In this document: in pieces, positions 44,894 through 61,248 of the stretch
Numbering within the stretch: position 1 is the first letter of the stretch
How the letters are laid out: each line of letters starts with the position of its first letter
Sequence record: NC_028903.1
Strand: one strand, 5' to 3'
Source of the DNA: Escherichia phage 172-1
Length of the DNA stretch: 64,000 nucleotides
The notes under the pieces: model-generated
What the model was told of the DNA's origin: nothing
What the model saw: only the letters and a program-made list of their open reading frames with translations
The model's database searches: none
Position numbers and translations under genes: made by a program

Positions 44894-44902
44894 TATACAT
44901 TA
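44894..44902 (-). promoter_or_regulatory. phage promoter core TAATGTATA (leftward, upstream of SSB)
   Basis: Read on minus strand ~60 nt upstream of ATG 44834. Confidence 0.45.
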
Positions 44903-48051: not shown

Positions 48052-49896
48052 TTAGTGCGTATGCATCCAGTTGAGTCCAATCTGACAATCAGATGCCAGA
48101 GGACATTCCATGTTCAAATACTCACCAGCCTTCTTAACACAAAGCTCGGTGTGCTCTTTGAGTTTCTGTACATCATTACGATTAACTGAGAACTGGCCCT
48201 CATCATGCATATCAATTACCTTAGCACAACGAACTCCATCCTTCTCAATCCACTTGTTAAGGAACATCATAGCATATTTCATAACAACAGCACCAGCACA
48301 TTGCAGGAGAGTGTTAAGTGCTTTATGAACCATAACCTTACCAGTGGCATCTCGTCTCATTGTAATCTTACGACCATCAACACCAATCAAGTACCCTTGA
48401 GCTGCTTTCTCTGTCATACGATCAATGAGGATTGCAATACATGGGTTCTCTGCCAAGAAACGTGCTCGCATCACTGAACCTTCATCAGCCCCACCACCTA
48501 CAATTGAACCAAGCTTAGCATCACCAGCACCATAGTTGAATGCGTAGATAAACGTCTTAGCGTTGTCACGAGTAGGAAGACCAGCAAGTCTCTGGTTGTG
48601 GGAGTGGATATCACCTTCAAGGAGAATATCACGATACATAATAGCAGAAGCTAAACCACGTTCTGCCAGAGCTTTCTTAGCTGGATTATTCTCTTCTATT
48701 GCTTCAGCAAGCATATCCCTACACTCTTTAATGAGGTAGTGTGCGAGCATACGCAATTCTAATCCAGAACCATCATACCCTAAGAATACTTCTTTACCAG
48801 CGGGTATGTAATATTTGTAAGCACCTACAGGTTTGTCTTTCTTCCCCGGCTTACCTTTCTCATAAATTACGTTAGTACCTTTTCGTATATAACAACCATC
48901 AGGAACAACGTTAGTAATAACGAAAGGACGAGAGTGATCATCATCTGAGTTATAGTCAGACTCAAACAAACCGCGACACTCATGACCAAACAAACCACGG
49001 GAGGGAATATTAACCACGATACGATGTTTGAATCGAAAAGTCGGAGTAGCGCAGCTGTTAGCTTCTGCCGAAAGTTTACCATCTTCGCGTTCCTTTGCTA
49101 TAAGTCCACTGATAAGACCTAGCCTGTGAGCCGCTACAACGCGTCTCTTAAGCAAACTTCCGACACTCCCTAGCTCACCCCCTAACCCTTCTTCAAGAGT
49201 CTCCTCGAGGTTTGTAGGAGCTGTAGGCCACTTGTTTGAGGTAGCTAGTGCTATCTTAATCTCATCAAAAGTGATAGGTCTACGTCGGTTAGGATTTAAA
49301 CCTAAACCAAAAACATAAGCCTTCATGTAGTTCTTAGTTTTAAACCTAAAGTGCTTCTCTAAGAACTTTCTGATATCAGCGTCAACCATCTCGGCTGTCT
49401 GCTTCTGTTTAGAATTACCTCGCATCCAAGCTGAATACCATGCTTGGTATGTTCCATACTTTCGCATATCTTTCTTGATTTCAAAAGTATTCCAAGGTTT
49501 CTTTGATACGTTAAACTCTGGAGGAAGAAAACCCTCATCCATAAGGGCTTCTTTAACTCGTGCATCTTTCGATGGGTCAAAGTCCACGTATTCAACACAG
49601 GTGAATGCTCCACCAATGTCCTCTCTCTTAAGTCCAACTCTATCACAATAGGCTTGAGGCCACTTCTGTAAAGCTCCAGACTTCTTAAATGGCTTCATAT
49701 AAGTAGAGCCATCTAATCTCATCTTAGGTAAGAGAGGAATTAATTCTTTGTCAATATTAACAATAATCTCTTTAAGGAGGTGAACATACCACCGAGCATT
49801 TCTTTGGTTGAAACTCACTCCGTGCTTCGCTTGCTTAGAGATTATATCAGCGACAGTCATCTCTGTCAAAAATGGGAGAGCGTCCGGGTTGCTCAC
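48052..49896 (-). CDS. family A DNA polymerase, polymerase domain only
   Basis: 614 aa; motif A DGSGLELRMLAHY, motif B RDNAKTFIYAFNYGAG, motif C HDE; no exonuclease motifs in N-terminus. Confidence 0.85.
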   Translation of the reverse strand: MSNPDALPFLTEMTVADIISKQAKHGVSFNQRNARWYVHLLKEIIVNIDKELIPLLPKMRLDGSTYMKPFKKSGALQKWPQAYCDRVGLKREDIGGAFTCVEYVDFDPSKDARVKEALMDEGFLPPEFNVSKKPWNTFEIKKDMRKYGTYQAWYSAWMRGNSKQKQTAEMVDADIRKFLEKHFRFKTKNYMKAYVFGLGLNPNRRRPITFDEIKIALATSNKWPTAPTNLEETLEEGLGGELGSVGSLLKRRVVAAHRLGLISGLIAKEREDGKLSAEANSCATPTFRFKHRIVVNIPSRGLFGHECRGLFESDYNSDDDHSRPFVITNVVPDGCYIRKGTNVIYEKGKPGKKDKPVGAYKYYIPAGKEVFLGYDGSGLELRMLAHYLIKECRDMLAEAIEENNPAKKALAERGLASAIMYRDILLEGDIHSHNQRLAGLPTRDNAKTFIYAFNYGAGDAKLGSIVGGGADEGSVMRARFLAENPCIAILIDRMTEKAAQGYLIGVDGRKITMRRDATGKVMVHKALNTLLQCAGAVVMKYAMMFLNKWIEKDGVRCAKVIDMHDEGQFSVNRNDVQKLKEHTELCVKKAGEYLNMECPLASDCQIGLNWMHTH

Positions 49897-49912
49897 TTTA
49901 TACTCCTTTAAA

Positions 49913-50335
49913 TTATTGGTAAATCAAATCCGTAAATGCTTGATTGTCTTCTATCACATCTAACACGGTAGCTTCATAACTGTAAGCCCTAACCGCCCCG
50001 TTAACAACTATCCGAGGAGTAGGTGGAGGTGGTGCATGGTTAGCCCTAGCTTCACGAGGTTGCTCTCGTACTAAATGAGCCACAACCCTTTGGTTAGCGA
50101 CTTCTTCTCTTTCTCGAATAGCTCTCTGAATGTAAGCTAACTTCATACCCCAAACTTCTTCAAACTCTTGAGGGTGTTTATCGCTGATAACTACATACTG
50201 ACGTTCAGGAATACCAGAGCGAATCTCTGACAAAAGCTCATGGAACAAATCAAGTTCATGTTCAGTGAGATTCATTTCGATATCATCCCACTTGAGAACT
50301 AGGAATCTGTTTTGGTGTCTAGCTGGTAATGGCAT
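49913..50335 (-). CDS. hypothetical protein
   Basis: 140 aa. Confidence 0.4.
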   Translation of the reverse strand: MPLPARHQNRFLVLKWDDIEMNLTEHELDLFHELLSEIRSGIPERQYVVISDKHPQEFEEVWGMKLAYIQRAIREREEVANQRVVAHLVREQPREARANHAPPPPTPRIVVNGAVRAYSYEATVLDVIEDNQAFTDLIYQ

Positions 50336-50498
50336 TCTACTCCACCTCTACTCTAACGTAAGTTCTCTCGCCAACATCATCTTTCCAGACCCATGCCTTG
50401 GCATCTTCTTCAGACTTAAAAGCTTTCACAACGCTGTATCCACCTTCCCATTCATCACCGAACCAGCGCTGTCCTACGTAAACATATTCTTTCATTAT

Positions 50499-50774
50499 TT
50501 AACCTTTTGGGAATGGCATTAAAGATTCCATAGCAGATTTAATTTCGCTATTGATTCGAGCATCTCGATAAGAGATAAACTTACCTTTGCTATCTCGTAA
50601 CATCACATGGGTTCTAGCTGTTACGTGGGGAAGTAATGTAATACTAGTTGGGATAGTGTCAATCCCTACAGAAAATTTGTCAATAGTCTTGCTTTCACTT
50701 AACAGATAAGACCAAGTTTGCTTCGGATGGTTAGGGTATGTGTCTCGAATTTGAACCATAGCTAACTTATTCAT
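50499..50774 (-). CDS. small protein, GKFISY/PFPKG paralog family (member 2)
   Basis: 91 aa; shares ...GKFISY...PFPKG C-terminus with adjacent gene. Confidence 0.45.
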   Translation of the reverse strand: MNKLAMVQIRDTYPNHPKQTWSYLLSESKTIDKFSVGIDTIPTSITLLPHVTARTHVMLRDSKGKFISYRDARINSEIKSAMESLMPFPKG

Positions 50775-50775
50775 A

Positions 50776-51027
50776 TTAAACTCCTTTAGGGAATGGGATG
50801 AGGTTTTCTACTGCAACACGGAACTCTTTCTCTACGTTTTTATTCTTATAAGAAATGAATTTACCATCAGCCCCACGGAGGATTACGTTAGTACGAGCTG
50901 TTTTTGGGTTATGACCAATCTGGTTTGCAATAATATTAGCAATGCCGTGGTTATTGGTAAATTTCCATTTAACCATACGATTGTTAGACATTACATCAAT
51001 GATATTTACAGATTTTACAATAGACAT
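50776..51027 (-). CDS. small protein, GKFISY/PFPKG paralog family (member 1)
   Basis: 83 aa; tandem paralog. Confidence 0.45.
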   Translation of the reverse strand: MSIVKSVNIIDVMSNNRMVKWKFTNNHGIANIIANQIGHNPKTARTNVILRGADGKFISYKNKNVEKEFRVAVENLIPFPKGV

Positions 51028-51061
51028 ATTTATTACCTAAGAAGTTTAATTTGGTTTATAT

Positions 51062-51090
51062 AAAAGAAAAGGCCACCCATTTGGGTAGCC
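51062..51090 (-). terminator. rho-independent terminator
   Basis: GGCUACCC / GGGUGGCC stem followed by UUUUCUUUU on minus transcript. Confidence 0.5.
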
Positions 51091-51095
51091 TCATA

Positions 51096-51419
51096 TTACG
51101 ATGAGCTTAAAGCTCCTTTTCGCTTAGCAGCACCAGCTGCTTTTCCAGCTCGATTACCACTTTTGCCGCCGTTTGAACGGTTTGAGCTGACTGATTCAAC
51201 ACGTAAGTTGCTTGACGCATTAGAGCCTCCAGACTTGACAGCTCGTTTGTGTCCAACATCTTTACCTCTGACAGCAGCTTTTCCATCGCGCTTTTCAACG
51301 ATGCGACGTGCACGGTGGCGCTGAGCATCTCCGCTCTTGCTCCCAACGCCTGTCTCACCACGGGCAATTGCGGTACGTCTTTCTTGTGCATAATCTCTCT
51401 TTCCTACATGATCTGCCAT
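51096..51419 (-). CDS. basic low-complexity protein (possibly nucleic-acid binding)
   Basis: 107 aa, R/K/G/A-rich; own promoter and AAGGAG RBS. Confidence 0.4.
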   Translation of the reverse strand: MADHVGKRDYAQERRTAIARGETGVGSKSGDAQRHRARRIVEKRDGKAAVRGKDVGHKRAVKSGGSNASSNLRVESVSSNRSNGGKSGNRAGKAAGAAKRKGALSSS

Positions 51420-51455
51420 TTAAAACTCCTTAATATATCAGTGTACACTAAGGAG

Positions 51456-51466
51456 TATACATTATA
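51456..51466 (-). promoter_or_regulatory. phage promoter core TATAATGTATA (leftward)
   Basis: 37 nt upstream of ATG 51419. Confidence 0.5.
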
Positions 51467-51475
51467 AGTTGCTGT

Positions 51476-52213
51476 TTAAGCTTTCTTTTCCATTGCTTTA
51501 ACAATAGCTTTACAGAAACCAGAACGAACAATGTCATCTGATTCGCCGTCTACAATCTCAGCGAACTCATACAGATCATGTTCATCAATAAAGTTAGTAG
51601 CCCAAGTAAGACCACTCTCACGACCACGCATATCATGCTGGTTAGTGTCACCCATGCAGAACAATTGAGAGGTTTCTCCCAATCGAGTCATGATTGAGAA
51701 GGCTTCATCTTTAGTGGTGTTCTGGAACTCATCTACGATAACAATAGCATCGTTGAAAGAACGACCACGGAGATACTCCAGAGGTACGAACTCAATATTA
51801 CTGTTACCGAGCTGGCATTCATAGAACCCTTTACCATATCGCTGAGTAATAACATCAATGATAGGCATCAAATATGGTTCAAACTTCTCACGCATCCCTC
51901 CCGGAAGCAACCCAAGAGAATTACCCATGCCGACCGAAGGGCGACTCAGGATAATCTTCTGAATCTTACCACTCTTCAGTGCATCGATAACCGTGGAAGT
52001 GATTACAAAGGTCTTACCACAGCCCGCAGGAGCGTCTGTGAACACAACTTGTTTAGTCTTGATAGCATTGAGCAGTTCAGACTGGAACTGGTTCTGAGGG
52101 ACTACAGGCTTTGCTAAAACCACCTCTTCAAACTCGCGCTTACCCTTACGAGTGACAAGTACTTCCCGACGAAGGTCTTTCCGTGATTCTTTCCGTGATT
52201 GACGACGACTCAT
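51476..52213 (-). CDS. phoH: PhoH-like ATPase
   Basis: 245 aa; Walker A PAGCGKTF, IVDEFQN, and GDTNQ motifs. Confidence 0.8.
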   Translation of the reverse strand: MSRRQSRKESRKDLRREVLVTRKGKREFEEVVLAKPVVPQNQFQSELLNAIKTKQVVFTDAPAGCGKTFVITSTVIDALKSGKIQKIILSRPSVGMGNSLGLLPGGMREKFEPYLMPIIDVITQRYGKGFYECQLGNSNIEFVPLEYLRGRSFNDAIVIVDEFQNTTKDEAFSIMTRLGETSQLFCMGDTNQHDMRGRESGLTWATNFIDEHDLYEFAEIVDGESDDIVRSGFCKAIVKAMEKKA

Positions 52214-52422
52214 TTACGCTCTCCAATTTCTTCGTAATGACATTCAGTAGTTAAACAATCTTTACAGATTGCTGTATAAACCCTGACGTTAGTAAATCGT
52301 TTGTTCTTCCCTTTGGTTGGAGAGCCTTTGGCAAGCTCTCTGATAACCTTGTTACTTAAATGAAGGTTTGTCCCTTCACATCTAGAGCACTTCACCACAA
52401 TGTCCATTCGGTAAGAGACCAC
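52210..52422 (-). CDS. small zinc-finger protein
   Basis: 70 aa; CSRC...CKDC...CH cluster. Confidence 0.35.
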   Translation of the reverse strand: MVSYRMDIVVKCSRCEGTNLHLSNKVIRELAKGSPTKGKNKRFTNVRVYTAICKDCLTTECHYEEIGERK

Positions 52423-52588
52423 AGAGAGTCACCTATGTGGGCATTGTCATTCCTGATGAGGTCTTTGATTTTATCAACATCAGTTAAGTGAGTCACATTC
52501 AAAATATCCTCAACATCTGGGGCATATTTAAATATGGCAACAATACTGTTGTGATCTTCAGCATATCTTTCTAGAACATAAACTACGC

Positions 52589-52912
52589 TCATGCGAAGTT
52601 AACCTCTTTATGAAGTCTGTAAACAGCTGTCGCCATACAAGCAACAGCTTCGTTATGTGGGAGATGCATCCCTGTAGAACCATCCCAATCTTTGAACTCA
52701 TTGTCAAAGACTCCGGTAGGCTCTGGATACAAGGCTTGCAACTCAACCAAATCGTTAGCAACTTGTTGCCATTTATCATCAGACCAGATAGGGTCATCCA
52801 ACCAGTAATACAAATAGGAATGGATGATCAATTGCCTTCTGTGCCGATTGATTACTTCAGCGGGACTTATCTCACTTCCATTTGAAGTCCTAAATGTATT
52901 ACTGTCAATCAT
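52589..52912 (-). CDS. small protein resembling NAD-dependent ligase domain Ia
   Basis: 107 aa; HSYLYYWLDDPIWSDDKW...LQALYPEP resembles the LigA N-terminal motif; weak. Confidence 0.3.
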   Translation of the reverse strand: MIDSNTFRTSNGSEISPAEVINRHRRQLIIHSYLYYWLDDPIWSDDKWQQVANDLVELQALYPEPTGVFDNEFKDWDGSTGMHLPHNEAVACMATAVYRLHKEVNFA

Positions 52913-53157
52913 TTCACAACCTTAAATTTGAATGTTGTTGGGTGATAATAATGCAACCTGTTAATGGTGTGCTTTGTTTCAAGATATATCCTACAAGAGT
53001 GACACATCACATGATTCAGACCAGTTACAGGATTAGGTTTAAAGTTGGCGATAGGCTTCTCTTTCTTACAGAAGCTACAGACTTTCTTTTCCATCTTTTC
53101 TCCAGTGGTCAACGAACTGCTGAAACACTTTACGGTCAAATGTGAAATTACGAGCAA
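52909..53157 (-). CDS. zinc-ribbon protein
   Basis: 82 aa; CSFC...CHSC pairs. Confidence 0.35.
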   Translation of the reverse strand: MLVISHLTVKCFSSSLTTGEKMEKKVCSFCKKEKPIANFKPNPVTGLNHVMCHSCRIYLETKHTINRLHYYHPTTFKFKVVK

Positions 53158-53454
53158 TTCCGCATTCTCTAAAAGTGGCAGGCATATAATCTACATCACC
53201 TTCAGATGTATGACCATAGACTTGAATAAGTTTCTTAATCTTATCCTTCTCTCTTCGAGGAAGCATTCTAAATGCCTCCTGAATATCTGTAATATGTTTT
53301 ATCTTCATCAGAAATTCCTGCTAATCCTCTGAGTTGTGGGAACAGCAATATTCACATACTCCACAACAAGGGCAAATTTCTACACTTGGGTCATATGCAT
53401 CATCAACTGTCATCCCACACTTGGTGCAGAACACATCATCATCTTCTTCCAATA

Positions 53455-54111
53455 TTAATTCTCCAAAGTTTTCTTCAGAGCTGCCCACGAGATTGGGTAG
53501 AGTTTAGCCATCTCTTCATCCAGAGATTGAGCAAACACTCGAACTTCATACTGAGCATGGGAGGATAGTCGCTGACGACACAACTCAAACCAGCCATACA
53601 AAGAACCAGTCCACACCCACTCAGTGATCATTCCCTGAGGAAGAACAAATCGGGCTTGTTCTGGTGCAACGAACTCAATCAACTTGTCATATGCTGCTAG
53701 AGAAGCTTCATATGCATCGTTAATCAACATTAATGCTTCAGCTCGCTCTCCATTGATGAGTTGAACCCCTGAACCTGCATGGAGGTCCGAAGGTCTCGCA
53801 AAAATCTCTTTAGGGATGAAGACTTCAACTGCTCCGTCTTTATACCTCCGGGACATTTCGTTCCACGAAAACCCAATTTGGTGCTTGCCCAACTGTCTCG
53901 CAATTGCGATAGGTGCTTTGCATCGGAAACTGACTTGTGGGTGTCGGAATGGAGTAACATGCTTCTCTCTTGCGAGGAAGTTGATGAGACGTTCATCACG
54001 TTCATTTAAATCACCTTCACGGGTTACGCCAAAGGAAACTCGAGCTGCGTTTACTACGCTACGATCACTTCCCATAGCTTCGATTAATGTTGCTTGTAAT
54101 TGTTCATTCAT
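53455..54111 (-). CDS. thyX: flavin-dependent thymidylate synthase ThyX homolog (variant active-site motif)
   Basis: 218 aa; recalled ThyX-like core (VVNAARVSFG, HVTPFRH, KAPIAIARQ, SHAQ); RHR-x7-S motif replaced by KHQ-x8-S. Confidence 0.7.
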   Translation of the reverse strand: MNEQLQATLIEAMGSDRSVVNAARVSFGVTREGDLNERDERLINFLAREKHVTPFRHPQVSFRCKAPIAIARQLGKHQIGFSWNEMSRRYKDGAVEVFIPKEIFARPSDLHAGSGVQLINGERAEALMLINDAYEASLAAYDKLIEFVAPEQARFVLPQGMITEWVWTGSLYGWFELCRQRLSSHAQYEVRVFAQSLDEEMAKLYPISWAALKKTLEN

Positions 54112-54126
54112 CCGTGAATTTCCTTA

Positions 54127-54336
54127 TTAATATTCTTTTACATAATAAACCACTAAGGTTCCCATCTCTGACAATGTTGATTTATGTAAGCTTACTTTAC
54201 TATAAATCTTTGGGGCCATCTTAAGAGCCTTCTTAAAACGGCGAGCATCTTTACGAGTAGCAAAGTGCTCTGTAACAGGTATAGCCGGGTCTTGGTAGAG
54301 GTAATATACCACCGTCCAATATTTTTTCATAATCAA
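54127..54336 (-). CDS. small protein, TRxxAR/YY paralog family (member 4)
   Basis: 69 aa; ATRKDARRFKKALK core and C-terminal YY-type ending. Confidence 0.45.
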   Translation of the reverse strand: MIMKKYWTVVYYLYQDPAIPVTEHFATRKDARRFKKALKMAPKIYSKVSLHKSTLSEMGTLVVYYVKEY

Positions 54337-54605
54337 ACACCTAGGGCAGTAGTTAAGAATGCTTTCAGGTTTGCTTCGGTCTGCATACCAGAGAGACTAT
54401 AGTGTGCACCACTATTACGGTCAGGTACAACGAAAGCAGGGATGCTTCTTACACCATACTTAACAGCTTGTTCACGACCATCACCTTCAAGGATGTTAAT
54501 CTCTTCTACTTCTACATCGAACTCCTTAACAACCTTCTCAAAGGTAGGAGCCATTGCTTTACATGGAGCACACTGATCACTATAAAACTTAATCACTTTA
54601 GACAT
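54333..54605 (-). CDS. thioredoxin/glutaredoxin-like protein
   Basis: Start at ATG 54603-54605 (MSKVIKFYSDQCAPCK...); CxxC active site. Confidence 0.55.
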   Translation of the reverse strand: MSKVIKFYSDQCAPCKAMAPTFEKVVKEFDVEVEEINILEGDGREQAVKYGVRSIPAFVVPDRNSGAHYSLSGMQTEANLKAFLTTALGV

Positions 54606-54795
54606 TCTATTCCTTGTTAATAAACAGGTTGATATGACGTTGGGTAGCAGGAACAACAATAAAAGATTTATACTGACCTTTTGCTAAGTCATGAGCAATC
54701 TTCTTTGTCTGACCAAGACCCATCACACAGCCACTAACAATAATGGCGTGTGCTTGCAACTCTTCAGGGAGTTTTAGTTTCATTCTTCAGGTTCC

Positions 54796-54981
54796 TTACA
54801 GCATAGCAAGAATGATAATAAGAGGTAATGTTATAGCGAAATTAATAAGAACAGCGCTGCCTAGCTTGATAGCTTTAACATCCTCTTCTGATGGGTTTTC
54901 TTTAATTGCTAAATTTCGAGCTTTATATATAACAGTACCAATTATTAACGACCACACGGCCCACACAATCAGTGAAATCAT
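54796..54981 (-). CDS. small two-TM membrane protein
   Basis: 61 aa; two hydrophobic helices. Confidence 0.4.
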   Translation of the reverse strand: MISLIVWAVWSLIIGTVIYKARNLAIKENPSEEDVKAIKLGSAVLINFAITLPLIIILAML

Positions 54982-54990
54982 ATCAAACCC

Positions 54991-55170
54991 TTATGCAGTC
55001 AGGAGGTGAAGCAGGAATGGGATAACAACAGCTACGACAACCATGATGGTTGATGCTGTTTGAATCTCACCTTTCTTGTCAGGAGTTTCTTCAATAAGCT
55101 TGCCAGAAGCCCAATAGATACCACCACCAATAAAGACAGCCCAAATACCCCATACGATTGCTGATAACAT
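54991..55170 (-). CDS. small two-TM membrane protein (paralog of 54796..54981; not in ORF track)
   Basis: 59 aa ORF found by hand (MLSAIVWGIWAVFIGGGIYWASGKLIEETPDKK...); same architecture as neighbour. Confidence 0.35.
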   Translation of the reverse strand: MLSAIVWGIWAVFIGGGIYWASGKLIEETPDKKGEIQTASTIMVVVAVVIPFLLHLLTA

Positions 55171-55231
55171 ATATCTATATCCTTATAAATAAGTTCGCCC
55201 CACCTCGGGTTAGGAGACAGGGCGGAGGTTT

Positions 55232-55795
55232 TTAGTAAGACACATCGCCACTTGAGTGGGACATGTTGCTCTTGACGAAGTAGCAATACTTGCCAAGACC
55301 TTCATTAATTTCTTGAAGCATACTCTGATCAACTGGATAAGTGGCTAAATCACCATCAAACTCATCCATCTTCTCAATAATACACATCAAGGTCATGCAC
55401 ATATCAGAGAGCATACCGTCCATATCTAGGTCAGCATTACCCTCTGAGAACCAAGCATGGGAGAGATAATTGGCTGCTGTGGCGTCCACTTTAACACAGT
55501 GGTAACGCATACGTTCAGCAATACGATCTCCTACTTGTCGTGCGTAATCTTCCAGCTCATCAAACATACCATGAACACCCTGAAATCCTGCACCAGAGAC
55601 GTTCCAATGGTAGTTTTTAGCTTTGATATGCAAGAGTTCCATGTTAGCTTGTAAGCAGCTCAGGATGTGTTCTAGGCTGTTTCCACTAATCATACCCTGC
55701 ATTGTTTCAAGGCGAGAGATTGAAAGCTCGGACCGGTCTAACATATTGTATTCGACACGACCAATATCAGGTAAATCAAAGACATTCTTATGCAT
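55232..55795 (-). CDS. dps: Dps-like ferritin (DNA-binding ferritin-like protein)
   Basis: Start at ATG 55793-55795 with GGAGAT RBS; NYHWNVSGAGFQGVH (H-x11-H) and GDRIAE (D-x3-E) match recalled Dps ferroxidase-centre spacing. Confidence 0.6.
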   Translation of the reverse strand: MHKNVFDLPDIGRVEYNMLDRSELSISRLETMQGMISGNSLEHILSCLQANMELLHIKAKNYHWNVSGAGFQGVHGMFDELEDYARQVGDRIAERMRYHCVKVDATAANYLSHAWFSEGNADLDMDGMLSDMCMTLMCIIEKMDEFDGDLATYPVDQSMLQEINEGLGKYCYFVKSNMSHSSGDVSY

Positions 55796-56117
55796 TTGGG
55801 TTATCTCCATCAAGTTCAACTGAATTAGCAACGTTACGTTCGATGTTTGCCATCACTTGCTGCGTTATGACAATACAGTTCTGTGGGTCTACTGACTTAG
55901 AACGCCCCATTTCAGGGTCATACACCTTAACTCGCTTAGCAGTTGAACCTGTAACCTGAAGAACCTTCAACAGATATCCCTGATTACCAATAGACCAAGC
56001 AACAACATCACGATTCTTGATAAAGCGACCAAGCATATCACGATGATAAAACTGTTGCATCACCTTGGATTTTGTAATCTCTTCAGTGGGCGGGGCCACT
56101 TTACTCAAATCTAACAT
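55788..56117 (-). CDS. hypothetical protein
   Basis: 109 aa; preceded by promoter motif. Confidence 0.45.
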   Translation of the reverse strand: MLDLSKVAPPTEEITKSKVMQQFYHRDMLGRFIKNRDVVAWSIGNQGYLLKVLQVTGSTAKRVKVYDPEMGRSKSVDPQNCIVITQQVMANIERNVANSVELDGDNPNA

Positions 56118-56155
56118 AACTCTCTCCTGTAAAAATACAAATTCTTATTGTACTC

Positions 56156-56188
56156 TATATACATTTGAGAGTTACCATATCTACTACC
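56156..56188 (-). promoter_or_regulatory. phage promoter (GGTAGTAG-N14-AAATGTATATA, leftward)
   Basis: Same upstream octamer and spacing as 44944..44976; 39 nt upstream of ATG 56117. Confidence 0.5.
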
Positions 56189-56190
56189 AA

Positions 56191-56400
56191 TCAGTAGTAA
56201 ACATTCCGAGATAGCATACAAGTACTTTCTGAGAATTCAACCCAACGGTGTATGCTAACATGCTCAACCGTACCGACCAGAGCTTTCATATTCTTTTTAG
56301 CAATACGAGCCTCTTTGCGAGTGTTAAACAGTTTGATATTATCTTTTCCCAAGTGTTGCTCGTGATTCCAAACAACACGAATAGCCCACATCTTTTTCAT
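56191..56400 (-). CDS. small protein, TRxxAR/YY paralog family (member 3)
   Basis: 69 aa; NTRKEARIAKKNMK core, ends VYY. Confidence 0.45.
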   Translation of the reverse strand: MKKMWAIRVVWNHEQHLGKDNIKLFNTRKEARIAKKNMKALVGTVEHVSIHRWVEFSESTCMLSRNVYY

Positions 56401-56609
56401 CAGTAGTGTACCTTTCCGCTGATATAAACACGACCAGAGGAATACTCTCTGGCCTTATGAATACTGATGCTCTTGATCATATCTATATTAAACATGGACT
56501 TTTTAAAATCTCGAGCTTGTTGGCGAGTAGGTAGTGCAGTCATAGTCATACCGCCTGATGCCCACTTAATCTTTGCTAACCAAAACTGTCTCATAGTGAT
56601 TGGTCTCAT
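56400..56609 (-). CDS. small protein, TRxxAR/YY paralog family (member 2)
   Basis: 69 aa; PTRQQARDFKKSMF core, ends VHY. Confidence 0.45.
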   Translation of the reverse strand: MRPITMRQFWLAKIKWASGGMTMTALPTRQQARDFKKSMFNIDMIKSISIHKAREYSSGRVYISGKVHY

Positions 56610-56806
56610 TAATAATAAACCTTGCTGTTGGCAAAAAGAGCACCTTCGTTATTCACAATAGCTTTTCCTATTGTAACCTTATTGAGTCTAAAAGTAGACT
56701 TGTATTGGTTTTTGACCCTACGGGCGTGTTCTCGAGTATTAACAAAATCTACAGCTACTAACTCTCCAGTCGTGTTATCATGTACACGAACAATCCACTT
56801 TTTCAT
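56609..56806 (-). CDS. small protein, TRxxAR/YY paralog family (member 1)
   Basis: 65 aa; NTREHARRVKNQYK core, ends VYY. Confidence 0.45.
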   Translation of the reverse strand: MKKWIVRVHDNTTGELVAVDFVNTREHARRVKNQYKSTFRLNKVTIGKAIVNNEGALFANSKVYY

Positions 56807-57009
56807 TTTACTAAACCCTTCATAAAGTTATAAAGATCATTAGAGGCTTTACCCCATTCAAGGTGCTTCTTATCCATATAGCTCTTACATGCTTCTTTAC
56901 TACTTTCGACGCATATATCAAATTGATGACATGCTCGACCAAATGTCATAGCTTTTAATTGAACCTCGGTAGTCAAACCTTTCAGTTCTTGGAACTCTTC
57001 TTCAGTCAT
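56803..57009 (-). CDS. hypothetical protein
   Basis: 68 aa. Confidence 0.35.
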   Translation of the reverse strand: MTEEEFQELKGLTTEVQLKAMTFGRACHQFDICVESSKEACKSYMDKKHLEWGKASNDLYNFMKGLVK

Positions 57010-57543
57010 TTACACACCCTTAGATGCAACAACACCTTCAGAGTTATTATAACGACCCTTCACTGCATAGGAATGTTCCCCTGCATGAGAGTGCTCAAAC
57101 ATCACCATCTGACCAACACGCATACCAGCACGAACTCGTAAGCTATGATGCTTGGTTACGTTGTGGAATTCAAACGTCAGCTTACTGCTATTAAATCCAG
57201 CATCAGCCCATCCAGCATGTAGGTGGTTCAAACCACAACGAGCCATAGATGAACGAAGAACAAACAGGCTTGAGATATTATCTGGAAGATTAAACTCCTC
57301 CATGGAGTGAGCCAAGAAGAACTGACCCGGAGTGATAACCAAACCCTCTTCAGGAATCTTTACTTCCTTCCACTGAAGATTTTCTTTCGCATCAATATCA
57401 ACGATGCCATCAGCCTGTTCTTCAACAAGGATAGTATCACCAATACGGATATCCACACTAGCAGCGTTAACATACTTATGCTCCGCATCCAGATAGCCAT
57501 TGTCAATTACATCGTGCAGTTCAACACTTCCTAGTAAACTCAT
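57010..57543 (-). CDS. dcd: dCTP deaminase (dUTPase-fold)
   Basis: 177 aa; ASVDIRIG, RSSMARCGL, AGWADAGF and YNNSEGVVASK align with the recalled E. coli Dcd sequence. Confidence 0.7.
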   Translation of the reverse strand: MSLLGSVELHDVIDNGYLDAEHKYVNAASVDIRIGDTILVEEQADGIVDIDAKENLQWKEVKIPEEGLVITPGQFFLAHSMEEFNLPDNISSLFVLRSSMARCGLNHLHAGWADAGFNSSKLTFEFHNVTKHHSLRVRAGMRVGQMVMFEHSHAGEHSYAVKGRYNNSEGVVASKGV

Positions 57544-57552
57544 TCTTATTCC

Positions 57553-58908
57553 TTAGTTATTTGTTTCCATGTCAAAAGAGATTCCACGACCCGCTTCATC
57601 GGCAAACCGAACTGTACGGGTTTGAGGCTGCAATACTTCAGGGTTATCAGCAACAAAGCGATCAGCGAGACTGCGGCTGACGGTCTCAGCTAATTCACCA
57701 TGAGAAGGGATATTAAGATCGGCGAGATTATCAACCACATCTTGGGCCACGTCTTCATCAGTCCATACAGCCCTAACAGGTGCGTTGAAACTCTGACCAG
57801 AGAACTGGTGACGGCTAACAGTCAAACCATTTGATTGACCATTAGAACGTCTAGACAACCACTGCTCAAATGAATCGCCAGTAACACCAAGAGCTTCTTC
57901 AAAAGATGTTCTACGAGTAGAGCTTAGATTTCGTGCTTCGTTTGCTCGACGTCTTGCAGGGGCTACAAACACCCCTTCAACTGCATTGTGCCGATTAGGT
58001 TCATCTTCTCGACCAAGGAGATCTCCTCCTGTATTAGTTGTTAAGTTTGTCAACCCTTCAGACCAATATGCACGAATCTGGCTAGAGCCATGAACACTTG
58101 ACATTAACTGAATCTCTTCGTAAGGTATTCCAAAGAATAGACTCATGTCTCGGTTAACACAGTATTGAGCACTTGTTGTATCCTCAATAAGAGAAACCTG
58201 ACCTAATCCATTAACCAGATGACTAACTGGCTGAGGTGTAGGAAGGTATCGAGTTTGGGCCATATATTGATATGCAACAGATGGAGCTGAGAATCTTAAC
58301 ACTTGTGAATTAGGCCACTTTTTGTGAACGTATCTGATTTCACGACTAGAAACAACCACAGGGCAAGGAGCGGTCATAGCTAAATATCCATGAGGAGTCA
58401 TGAATAGGTTGTCAAGAGTCATCGCACCACGGCACATCATAGGAAAATTATCCAATACCTCTTCAATAGAAGTAGGATAATTAAACATGAATTGAATGCG
58501 GGTTCCATTCCACTGAAACTCAATAATATCAGTGAATGTTAATTGAGAACCCCCAGCATATGATTCGTTTGTAGCTTCAGCAAGAAGGGATGCATACTCG
58601 ATATCTTGTGATTCAAGCCACTCTTTCACATTGCTTTCAATCTCTCGTCCAAGAGCTTGCCAATGATCAACTGTAGTGAAAGTATTTTGAGTCCCTGGCG
58701 TCTGTCCTCTGACAACGAAGATATCAATATCGTGAGGTGCTATGTTATTAAGCACGGCATCACGAACAGCCCCACCAGTAATGATAGGGCAAATGCCGTC
58801 TGGAATCAAGTTGTTGTTAATCAACTGTTCAATGAAGTGACGACCAACAGTGATATCAGGTTGTTGAGCAACCTTATCTTCAATTCGGTTAATCGGGATA
58901 ACAATCAT
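57553..58908 (-). CDS. nucleotidyltransferase, tRNA-NT/poly(A) polymerase head-domain family
   Basis: Start at ATG 58906-58908; ITGGAVRDAVLNNIAPHDIDIFV = GGxVRD...DxD pol-beta signature; C-terminal ~300 aa unrecognised. Confidence 0.55.
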   Translation of the reverse strand: MIVIPINRIEDKVAQQPDITVGRHFIEQLINNNLIPDGICPIITGGAVRDAVLNNIAPHDIDIFVVRGQTPGTQNTFTTVDHWQALGREIESNVKEWLESQDIEYASLLAEATNESYAGGSQLTFTDIIEFQWNGTRIQFMFNYPTSIEEVLDNFPMMCRGAMTLDNLFMTPHGYLAMTAPCPVVVSSREIRYVHKKWPNSQVLRFSAPSVAYQYMAQTRYLPTPQPVSHLVNGLGQVSLIEDTTSAQYCVNRDMSLFFGIPYEEIQLMSSVHGSSQIRAYWSEGLTNLTTNTGGDLLGREDEPNRHNAVEGVFVAPARRRANEARNLSSTRRTSFEEALGVTGDSFEQWLSRRSNGQSNGLTVSRHQFSGQSFNAPVRAVWTDEDVAQDVVDNLADLNIPSHGELAETVSRSLADRFVADNPEVLQPQTRTVRFADEAGRGISFDMETNN

Positions 58909-58909
58909 T

Positions 58910-59464
58910 TTACATTTTCCAATATAATGAAGGTGGGTCGTAAGGGTCAAATCCCGTGAGTTCACACAAGTATTTATAAACCTTAACGGTTAAGTTAACG
59001 TCCTGTTCACAGTAAGTAAACATATCTTCAGTGAAAGCATCCCATGCTTCCTCTTGCTCACCGTAGTCTCCTTTAAGTTCCTCTAAGAACTCACCCCATT
59101 GCTTCAAACCATGACCTCTTGGGCCATGTCTAGGGTCACCTTTCGGATACTCAGGACTGTCACCAATACGGTCAGGTTTAAGATATCGACTAAGACACAA
59201 GGTGTCGAAGACGTTAAAACGATAGTCGATCAGATTGGGATACATCTTCTTCAGAGCACAAAGGTCGAAGTCAATAATATTATGACCTACGAGCACATCA
59301 GCTTCTGTAAGTTTACGAATCCCATCTTCAATTTGGTGAGGCCGATAGCCCCACCTTTCACCAGTTTCAACATCGAAGATGTAAATACACCACACTTTAG
59401 TTATGTCATCGTACAGTGCATTACTCTCGATATCAAATGCAAACACTTTCTTTTTCTTTACCAC
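58910..59464 (-). CDS. DnaQ-like 3'-5' exonuclease (stand-alone proofreading domain)
   Basis: 184 aa; Exo I FDIES, Exo II HNIIDFD, Exo III YCEQDV motifs. Confidence 0.7.
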
Positions 59465-61248
59465 GGTGAAGCTCCATCTGCTTGATTGACGAGAGAAGCT
59501 GCATCCTCTCCGTTAGTCAAAACGAATGGATTATCTTCATCAACTTCAAAGTCTTCCCTTTCTACAAGTCTACCGGTTTCGCTGATATACTTAGTATAAC
59601 AGACACCCGTCTGACCATAGTTACGTTCTTTCAGTAATCGAATGACTGAGAGGTTCTTAGCTAAGCCGTCAGCTTGCTTATCACGCTCAAAGCCAATGAT
59701 ACACTGACACCAACGCATAAGAGAACGAGAGCCAGTGAACTGTACTTCACGTACCTGTCCACCTTCTTCGTGAGGAGCACCACCTGCCGGAGCATTAAGG
59801 TGAGATAGCACGAAAGCGGTAAAGTCTAATTCTTTACACATACCAGCAAGCTCGGAAGCAATCTTACTGATTTCAGTGTTAATCTCTGAAGGTGTTAAAT
59901 GAGATACCAGAGCGGTAATGTTATCAAGAATGATGAACTTACACTGGTTTTCAACTACCCAGAAACGGATACACTGTTTAATATCTTCCCATTCGTTCTG
60001 CCCAAAGTTGTCATACAAGAAGAATTTGTCTGCATAACGAAGTGCTTCATTACGCAAATCCTCCTCGTCATATTCAACATCGGGTCGGTGGAAAGGAATT
60101 GATGCTGACTTACCAGCGATGTTCTTAACAGACATGCCTACCTTCTCTTCCAAGAAGAAGCCACCCCCATTAAAGCCATGCTCTAAGCACAGATGAGCAA
60201 CCAGTTCGTGAGCAATTAGTGTTTTACCACTACCTACACCACCACCGATGGCTACTACCTCTCCCCATCGAATACCGAAGGTCATCTCATTAAGAGTTTT
60301 CCACGGATATGGAATACCCCACTCCGCTTTCTTCAGAGCATCATCAAGGCAATCAAAGATTGTTACAGCACCAGCAGGAGATTCCCGCTTTGCTGAATAC
60401 TTGAGAATGTTGAATAACTCTTGACCACGACCAGACAGAAGCATGTCATTCGCATCCTTAATCTCTTTCTCCACACCGTTGTATGGGAAAGTTCCTTTAG
60501 GAATACGAGCAAACTTGACATGAGGGAATAAAGAACGACCTTTTGTTAAAGCTATCTCACCTGCATCGTCATTGTCCATGCAGAGCACAACCTCCTCAAA
60601 ACCATTTACGAAGTCTCGATTACGAGACAACACAGAAGAGATTGAACCTGCACCGAACGGTAAAGAAACACATGCTGGCTTAATATTTGTTGCATTTGTA
60701 AAAGCTGTAAGGACATGGAAACCAGACATACAAGATAGCGGGTCTTCAAAAATAAACAGCTTCTTGTTGTACACATCTCCACGTTGAGCTTGTGCCATAC
60801 CAAATAAGTCTGCTTCTTTCACACTGCCAACGTAATAAAACTTCTTACTATCTAGCAGCTTAACCTCGTAACCAACAATGTTTCCATCACGTTCACGAGG
60901 AAAGAAGTAGCTGTCTGGAGTCTGACCATCAGTCTGACTTAGACCAATGCGACACTCAAAACGCTCTGATACAGCTTTAGGGATTAAACGTCGAGTAAGT
61001 TCACCCTGAGGAAGCTCTAAGCAATCATCTAAGACTTCTCTCAATTCTTCAGGGGATAACTCTTTCTTCTCGTTTGGAGTGGGTGTAGTGCCCTTTTCGA
61101 ACACTTCGTAATTCCCACAACGGTTACAACTTCCCCACTCCTCACCTGTCTCTTCGTTACGGAAGAGAATCATGTGGTTGTGGGTTTTATCACGACCATG
61201 AGAGATACATTCCTTACAACCTGTGTCTCCCAAAATGATCTTTGACAT
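59458..61248 (-). CDS. T7 gp4-like primase-helicase
   Basis: 596 aa; N-terminal Cys4 zinc ribbon, TOPRIM region, Walker [10 protein letters not shown] and Walker B ILDN helicase motifs. Confidence 0.85.

Follow-up and report, generated by a model that had tools for sequence, protein, structure and literature searches.

The 64,000-nucleotide stretch of Escherichia phage 172-1 considered here (NC_028903.1; "the window" is this whole stretch) encodes the two halves of a T7-type DNA polymerase in separate genes, with 9 kb between them. One specifies a family A polymerase without an exonuclease domain; the other specifies a protein with the motifs of a proofreading exonuclease and directly follows the gene of the primase-helicase. 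All genes from ~40 kb to 64 kb of the window lie on the minus strand. A tblastn search of phage genomes with the 614-residue polymerase open reading frame (ORF) identifies the source as a Kuravirus (Gordonclarkvirinae; phiEco32-like podophages with a C3 head): the protein is 97.9-99.2% identical, over 100% of its length, to the annotated 'DNA polymerase' of Escherichia phages Paul, EcoN5, IMEP8, NJ01 and ES17 and of Shigella phage SGF2. The original prediction, made from the letters of the window, had proposed a polymerase with motifs A, B and C and no exonuclease, a separate 184-residue DnaQ-like protein with motifs Exo I, II and III directly downstream of the primase-helicase, and ~9 kb of nucleotide-metabolism and other genes between the two, that is, separate genes rather than the fused T7 gp5 layout. 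The analysis bears this out at the level of genes and domains, and each coordinate that the prediction gave is correct, with one qualification that concerns the family of the exonuclease.

The polymerase gene starts with GTG and has the ribosome-binding site AAGGAG 6 nucleotides upstream. Its sole Pfam domain is DNA_pol_A (PF00476; residues 361-611, E = 1.2e-22). The signature residues of motif A (DxSxxE; D375, E380), motif B (RxxxKxxxxxxxYG; R443, K447, Y451, G456) and motif C (HDE; H564, D565, E566) are unvarying in 66 homologues. T7 gp5 is the top match in the PDB (phmmer E = 9.8e-33, compared with 4e-6 for Klenow), and the AlphaFold2 model of the protein (pLDDT 91.0) retrieves T7 polymerase at Foldseek PDB ranks 1-27 (E = 3e-27 to ~1e-20), with Bst and Taq polymerases at ~1e-16. 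Relative to T7, the model contains well-predicted helical inserts at residues ~136-225, 322-366 and 390-416, amounting to ~160 residues in all.

The same-polypeptide N-terminal 3'-5' exonuclease domain that is a feature of the T7-like subfamily is absent from this 614-residue protein. (What this means operationally is that a Pfam search returns no exonuclease domain at E <= 1; that residues 1-250, where Exo motifs had been named as the finding that would overturn the original prediction, have no similarity to the exonuclease profile (probability 0.17%, E = 0.35); and that the modeled N-terminus consists of two long helices with no DnaQ-type sheet.) Profile, Pfam search and helical start of the model together rule out a hidden or degenerate exonuclease domain in the N-terminal part of the polymerase.

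The polymerase ORF also contains a perfect extended sigma-70 consensus (49841-49869, minus strand; TTGACA, 17 nucleotides, TG-n-TATAAT; 12/12 matches), located 27 nucleotides past the start codon, where its codons read L-T...V-A-D-I-I. Phage Paul has the identical sequence. The site may serve as an internal promoter or bind RNA polymerase, or it may simply be a side effect of codon conservation. In several relatives, close and distant, a homing endonuclease (HNH or endonuclease VII) breaks up the polymerase gene: this is the case in PE006, LAMP, Bas93, Bas94, pEC-N1203-2Af.1 and a 53-kb contig (L086; 16980-19561). These interrupted genes match in two pieces; the polymerase gene of the window is unbroken.

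The 184-residue protein is a member of the Pfam family DNA_pol_A_exo1 (PF01612; E = 1.1e-8, 35.5 bits against a gathering cut-off of 23.6). It is 99.5% identical to the corresponding protein of NJ01 and 96.7% identical to gp77 of Paul, which is annotated 'exonuclease'. The residues of Exo I (DxE; D11, E13), Exo II (Nx(2-3)[FY]D; H61, N62, D67) and Exo III (YxxxD; Y151 and D155 of YCEQD), and likewise H118, are unvarying in 37 stand-alone homologues of 32-96% identity. The only PDB sequence match is T7 DNA polymerase, with residues 9-163 aligned onto gp5 3-182 (E = 1.3e-10). The AlphaFold2 model (pLDDT 93.9) has a mixed beta-alpha fold; its top 27 Foldseek matches in the PDB are T7 polymerase (gp5 exonuclease region; E = 6.6e-11, TMq 0.65-0.70), and below these rank exonuclease domains from other polymerases of families A and B. 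On sequence and predicted fold, the protein qualifies as a putative DEDDy 3'-5' exonuclease of the polymerase-A type, with the RNase H-like/DnaQ fold. A literature search found no published 3'-5' exonuclease assay for gp74-like proteins, gp74 being the phiEco32 counterpart. The GTG start of the gene lies within the end of the primase-helicase gene (...CCGTGGTAA, ending in TGGTAA), which it overlaps by 7 nucleotides, with GGAG upstream.

The designation 'DnaQ-like' is correct at the level of the superfamily and not at that of the family. Strictly, the protein does not count as DnaQ, because its Exo III is YCEQD, that is, of the DEDDy type, and because it belongs to PF01612. Its Pfam matches at E <= 0.01 are PF01612, PF13482 and PF18136 and do not include RNase_T (PF00929), which we take to be the family of DnaQ/Pol III epsilon (DEDDh, Exo III of the form Hx4D), and no DnaQ structure is found among its PDB sequence matches at E <= 1. 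A true DnaQ/Pol III epsilon identity is rejected.

The two ORFs fit T7 gp5 end to end. The profile of the 37 stand-alone exonuclease homologues covers gp5 2-189 (hhalign probability 99.7%, E = 1e-26), and the polymerase profile (E = 5.5e-75) sets residue 1 of the polymerase at ~gp5 204 and runs to 704. When the concatenated halves are aligned by MAFFT with T7 and fused relatives, gp5 205 marks the end of the exonuclease and gp5 206 the start of the polymerase. The alignment with gp5 that had been proposed as a check thus assigns gp5 2-189 to the exonuclease and ~206-704 to the polymerase. The junction corresponds to the linker after the last exonuclease helix of gp5, and the halves have neither overlap nor missing segment. 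Since the exonuclease spans gp5 2-189 and the polymerase begins at ~206, the cut lies in the inter-domain linker. At the level of gene and domain, these alignments support the interpretation of the two ORFs as complementary halves of a T7 gp5-like enzyme. Judged by identity to the same relatives, the two halves diverge at similar rates: the figures for exonuclease and polymerase, respectively, are 96.7% and 99.2% for Paul, 57% and 70% for P0144/P0011 (apparently one 100.9-kb contig), and 33% and 40% for the LUZ24-like phage DL54. The unvarying catalytic residues point to selection on catalysis and are evidence that both halves are probably functional.

Table 1. Features of the polymerase region (window coordinates)
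Feature	Position	Strand	Basis
T7 gp4-like bifunctional primase-helicase, 596 aa	59458..61248	-	Pfam DnaB_C, weak Toprim_2; identity to phage Paul
Predicted stand-alone DEDDy 3'-5' exonuclease, 184 aa (= phiEco32 gp74)	58910..59464	-	PF01612, T7 match, fold, RefSeq
Cargo block, 9,013 bp, ~26-28 genes	49897..58909	-	ORFs, Pfam, Paul and phiEco32 annotation
Thioredoxin, ~90 aa from internal ATG	54333..54605	-	PF00085 E 2e-13
Exonuclease-less family A DNA polymerase, 614 aa (= phiEco32 gp53)	48052..49896	-	PF00476, T7 match, fold
5'-3' exonuclease, FEN-like, 272 aa	41157..41975	-	PF02739 E 6.5e-6, below gathering score

In principle, the halves might end up in one polypeptide through a split intein, trans-splicing, or a programmed frameshift or bypass. 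Phage replication genes are known to include split inteins and genes 'fractured' by homing endonucleases (PMC2677866), and the HNH or endonuclease VII insertions inside the polymerase genes of relatives point the same way. On the other hand, Pfam finds no intein or Hint domain, ~26-28 independently translated genes separate the halves, and each half has its own ribosome-binding site and start codon. There is also no room for intein halves, because the exonuclease is a full-length gp5 exonuclease domain and the polymerase begins at the linker. Rejoining of any kind is considered very improbable, and its intein and trans-splicing versions are rejected for want of spare sequence and of a Hint domain.

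The two genes occur together. In the phage collection, ~97 records contain the polymerase at an identity of at least 80% and ~96 contain the exonuclease at an identity of at least 60%; the polymerase and exonuclease clusters have matching longest contigs (100,903, 112,127 and 52,998 bp, for example), which suggests that the same contigs underlie both. All of the 51 exonuclease homologues retrieved by a word search are short (~105-212 residues). The closest ~105 polymerase homologues contain no exonuclease Pfam domain, and they include the LUZ24-like 'DNA polymerase part II', with ~40% identity over 99% of the length. In DL54 the order is primase-helicase, overlapping exonuclease (169 residues), seven small ORFs (1.9 kb) and polymerase (545 residues). 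The exonuclease follows the primase-helicase in a 100.9-kb contig (L084) and in Vibrio phage Vp_R1 as well, where no polymerase gene lies within 10 kb downstream of the exonuclease. In the 53-kb contig L086, ThyX and one other gene stand between primase-helicase and exonuclease, and the polymerase, further broken by its HNH gene, is ~6.5 kb from the exonuclease. The cargo of distant relatives includes DCD, ThyX, thioredoxin, NrdD/NrdG and NAPRTase. That the split might be an artefact of assembly or sequencing, or a recent pseudogenization in one genome, has a practically negligible probability: no point in support of it was found, and the same layout recurs in dozens of Kuravirus genomes that were sequenced independently, as well as in LUZ24-like and more distant phages.

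A wider sample comes from IMG/VR, where the exonuclease profile recovers 80 loci. Most of these encode fused proteins of 575-650 residues immediately after the primase-helicase; in ~12 of the 80 the exonuclease and polymerase ORFs are adjacent or overlapping; and one close relative (L004), whose exonuclease stands alone, lacks a polymerase in the 4.6 kb downstream of it. In a neighbor-joining tree of the polymerase domain (413 columns, 100 bootstraps) the polymerase-only proteins, Kuravirus-like and LUZ24-like, form one clade with 75% bootstrap support. Its sister clade consists of fused enzymes, in which the exonuclease profile is found in residues 1-170 (hmmsearch E = 1e-40 to 1e-52). The loci with adjacent halves group apart, in a clade with 100% bootstrap support, and have their junction at ~gp5 193, compared with ~206 for the window and DL54. 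The simplest reading of these sequences suggests a single old fission at the base of the Kuravirus and LUZ24-like group, followed by growth of the cargo between the halves. A second fission, in the same linker, would have taken place in the cyanophage-like group, and it is read as independent because those loci form a separate clade with 100% support. From the gene orders, the exonuclease half, not the polymerase half, appears to have retained the ancestral place beside the primase-helicase.

The primase-helicase itself (Pfam DnaB_C, E = 9.9e-11) is 100% identical to the 'DNA primase/helicase' of Paul. Its C-terminus (encoded at 59458-59560, minus strand) is an acidic tail that ends in NQADGASPW, with the aromatic W as its terminal residue. 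This tail resembles what we take to be the gp5-binding C-terminal tail of T7 gp4; if it is truly gp4-like, it would be consistent with a T7-like contact between helicase and polymerase.

The first gene past the exonuclease starts 1 nucleotide after the exonuclease stop and encodes a 447-residue protein (57553-58908, minus strand). This protein has a GGAVRD...DIDIF signature, a weak match to the PolyA_pol head domain (E = 0.003) and a long C-terminal half of low complexity; it is labelled 'nucleotidyltransferase' in phiEco32 and 'hypothetical' in Paul. The enzymes of the cargo block, as identified by Pfam, are dCTP deaminase (E = 3.5e-34), ThyX (8.8e-44), PhoH (4.2e-56) and thioredoxin; a Dps/ferritin-like protein and many small ORFs complete it. 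A stand-alone Nlig-Ia protein of 107 residues (52589-52912, minus strand) consists only of the N-terminal Ia (NAD+-binding) domain (PF22745, E = 2.7e-35), without the adenylation and OB domains, and is annotated 'DNA ligase' in relatives. The cargo block also harbors small families of tandem paralogues (56191-56806 and 54127-54336; 50499-51027; 54796-55170; all on the minus strand). One such family comprises three adjacent ORFs of 65-69 residues and a fourth copy, with the core ...TR..AR..KK... and the endings VYY, VHY or KEY; others comprise ORFs of 83 and 91 residues ending in ...FISY...L[IM]PFPKG, and membrane-protein-like ORFs of 59 and 61 residues.

The thioredoxin gene is sited between the polymerase halves. 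The region of gp5 that is spanned by the polymerase alignment presumably includes the thioredoxin-binding domain, and the phage thioredoxin is, by analogy, a candidate processivity partner of the polymerase. A processivity-factor role of this gp5/thioredoxin style has been proposed for the thioredoxin of the related phage Privateer (PMC7881722), and thioredoxin and polymerase are both detected in SU10 proteomics. The 5'-3' exonuclease gene sits ~6 kb downstream of the polymerase and is labelled 5'-3' exonuclease in phage Paul, as is the corresponding gene in YF01 (PMC9965538). Since this activity also has a separate gene, all three Pol I-type activities are separately encoded.

The phage-sigma promoter motif TAATGTATA is matched in three minus-strand intergenic gaps, at 56158-56166 (with one mismatch), 51456-51464 and 44894-44902; the first two are in the cargo block. 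These positions agree with three middle promoters of SU10 and phiEco32 (PMC4281155). The exonuclease gene, and likewise that of the primase-helicase, is upstream of all three matches, and the polymerase gene is downstream of two. The middle genes of SU10 are CDS25-68, with the polymerase among them (PMC4281155), and the exonuclease, mapped by gene order, would fall in the SU10 early block; gp79, which is upstream, is called a middle-gene product in PMC8948821. Over the whole window TAATGTATA is found 22 times, against 20.9 expected, which is not above chance. The promoter layout is treated as a lead only, because published temporal assignments disagree with one another and the motif shows no enrichment over the window. 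The split might be a regulatory device, by which the ratio of exonuclease to polymerase, and hence fidelity or the processing of 3' ends at the fork, changes during infection, or by which the exonuclease travels with the helicase. This proposal is speculative and rather improbable; if it were true, a large and old clade (Kuravirus and LUZ24-like) would have a tunable or helicase-linked proofreader, unlike any characterized family A replicase.

The two proteins can be thought of, with good probability, as a two-subunit T7-type replicase that arose by fission of a fused exonuclease-polymerase gene and whose halves re-associate, with proofreading in trans. An ancestral fused gene, located just downstream of the primase-helicase as in T7, would have been cut in the inter-domain linker. 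The exonuclease half would have been kept beside the primase-helicase, its start overlapping the primase-helicase stop, and the polymerase half would have turned into an independent gene, with a variable set of nucleotide-metabolism and small genes accumulating in between, to 9.0 kb in the present case. The two proteins would re-associate non-covalently in a gp5-like architecture, in which the 184-residue subunit would remove misincorporated 3' nucleotides for the 614-residue polymerase. Physical association and proofreading in trans are inferred from sequence and by analogy: the model is based on the complementarity of the domains, the polymerase-type character of the exonuclease, the co-occurrence of the genes and the reassembly that AlphaFold2 predicts for the independently split S-SBP1 pair.

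Alternatively, the exonuclease may be a free-standing enzyme that does not dock on the polymerase, and that trims 3' ends in recombination or repair, processes Okazaki or primer ends together with the primase-helicase, or degrades host DNA; the polymerase would then be without a dedicated proofreader. Stand-alone DEDD nucleases with other roles are common, the 5'-3' exonuclease is likewise a free gene in this phage, and the exonuclease start overlaps the primase-helicase stop rather than lying beside the polymerase. The predicted middle promoters ahead of the polymerase also have the exonuclease gene on their upstream side. In contrast, outside the split clade every one of the nearest relatives of the exonuclease is the N-terminal domain of a fused T7-like polymerase, the cut sits in the inter-domain linker, and the exonuclease co-occurs with the polymerase-only gene throughout the clade. 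Moreover, the split S-SBP1 pair is predicted to reassemble, and an exonuclease domain is reportedly needed for the stability of family A polymerases (PMC10201439, discussion). A free-standing nuclease is the main rival to the two-subunit replicase, though unlikely. Three points weigh against the two-subunit replicase: the bootstrap support of the split clade is just 75%, in a simple neighbor-joining tree; the position of the exonuclease upstream, and of the polymerase downstream, of predicted promoters means that co-regulation is possibly absent; and a literature search found no biochemical or structural work on an exonuclease-polymerase complex, and no fidelity work, for any Kuravirus or LUZ24-like phage.

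The split of the polymerase in phiEco32-like phages is already known. The RefSeq annotation of phiEco32 (NC_010324) describes phi32_53 as 'DNA polymerase; lacks 5'-3' and 3'-5' exonuclease domains' and phi32_74, which is ~8.0 kb away, as 'DNA polymerase exonuclease subunit; contains 3'-5' exonuclease domain'. According to a 2012 paper (PMC3517423), every LUZ24-group phage has one gene for the polymerase and another for the proofreading 3'-exonuclease; citing Savalia 2008, the paper notes a similar layout in phiEco32. A 2023 paper (PMC9965538) finds the polymerase apart from both exonucleases in all Kuravirus-like phages, 7-11, Privateer, Vp_R1 and BUCT695. The arrangement is therefore not new. 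The adjacent-gene split of PolA in S-SBP1-like T7-type cyanophages, whose halves are predicted by AlphaFold2 to reassemble like the fused Syn5 enzyme, has been presented as the first observation of exonuclease/polymerase splitting in PolA (PMC10201439; Czernecki et al. 2023); the phiEco32 annotation and the 2012 paper had already recorded the split for phiEco32 and LUZ24-like phages.

The current understanding is unchanged by the finding, and its remaining value is that of a natural test case. Family A polymerases reportedly depend on the exonuclease domain for their stability, and this clade keeps the domain on a separate protein. The separate exonuclease has persisted while the proteins of Kuravirus and LUZ24-like phages diverged to 33% identity for the exonuclease and 40% for the polymerase, and with the halves as much as 9 kb or more apart, a space filled by unrelated genes. 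The comparative additions are the probable sharing of one fission by Kuravirus-like and LUZ24-like phages, its apparent independence from the S-SBP1 split, and the seemingly ancestral position of the exonuclease half.

Among known systems, phiEco32 gp53/gp74 and their Gordonclarkvirinae orthologues are the closest, with the same gene order, the same overlap with the primase-helicase and the same type of cargo. The order shared by Kuravirus is primase-helicase, exonuclease, nucleotidyltransferase-like gene, dCTP deaminase ... ThyX ... PhoH ... polymerase; the window differs from other members only in the length and content of the cargo (9,013 bp, compared with ~8.0 kb in phiEco32 and ~9.3 kb in Paul). 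The LUZ24-like Pseudomonas phages (Bruynoghevirus; 'DNA polymerase part I / part II') have their fission point within ~2 residues of that of the window (gp5 ~205-208), belong to the same polymerase-only clade and share the order of primase-helicase, overlapping exonuclease, small genes and polymerase. They differ in the size of the gap and of the proteins: in DL54, ~1.9 kb with 7 small ORFs separates a 169-residue exonuclease (33% identity) from a 545-residue polymerase (40%). In the S-SBP1-like cyanophages a T7-like PolA is cut in the same linker, with the exonuclease active site kept and reassembly predicted for S-SBP1. In contrast to the widely separated genes of the window, however, their ORFs are adjacent and overlapping, having arisen from a +1 frameshift; the cut is at ~gp5 193; and they form a separate clade.

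T7 itself provides, in gp5, the top sequence and structure match for both halves, and it shares the upstream primase-helicase, the acidic helicase tail and the thioredoxin, which is phage-encoded here and a host protein in T7. Its polymerase is one polypeptide of 704 residues instead of two proteins, and it is without the ~160 residues of extra helical inserts. In Pol III, a family C enzyme, polymerase (alpha) and proofreading (epsilon, DnaQ) are also on separate polypeptides, but the DnaQ exonuclease is of the DEDDh type, whereas that of the window is DEDDy (PF01612). The phiKZ-like phages likewise have polymerase and 3'-5' proofreading on separate polypeptides; their enzyme belongs to family B (PMC3201878).

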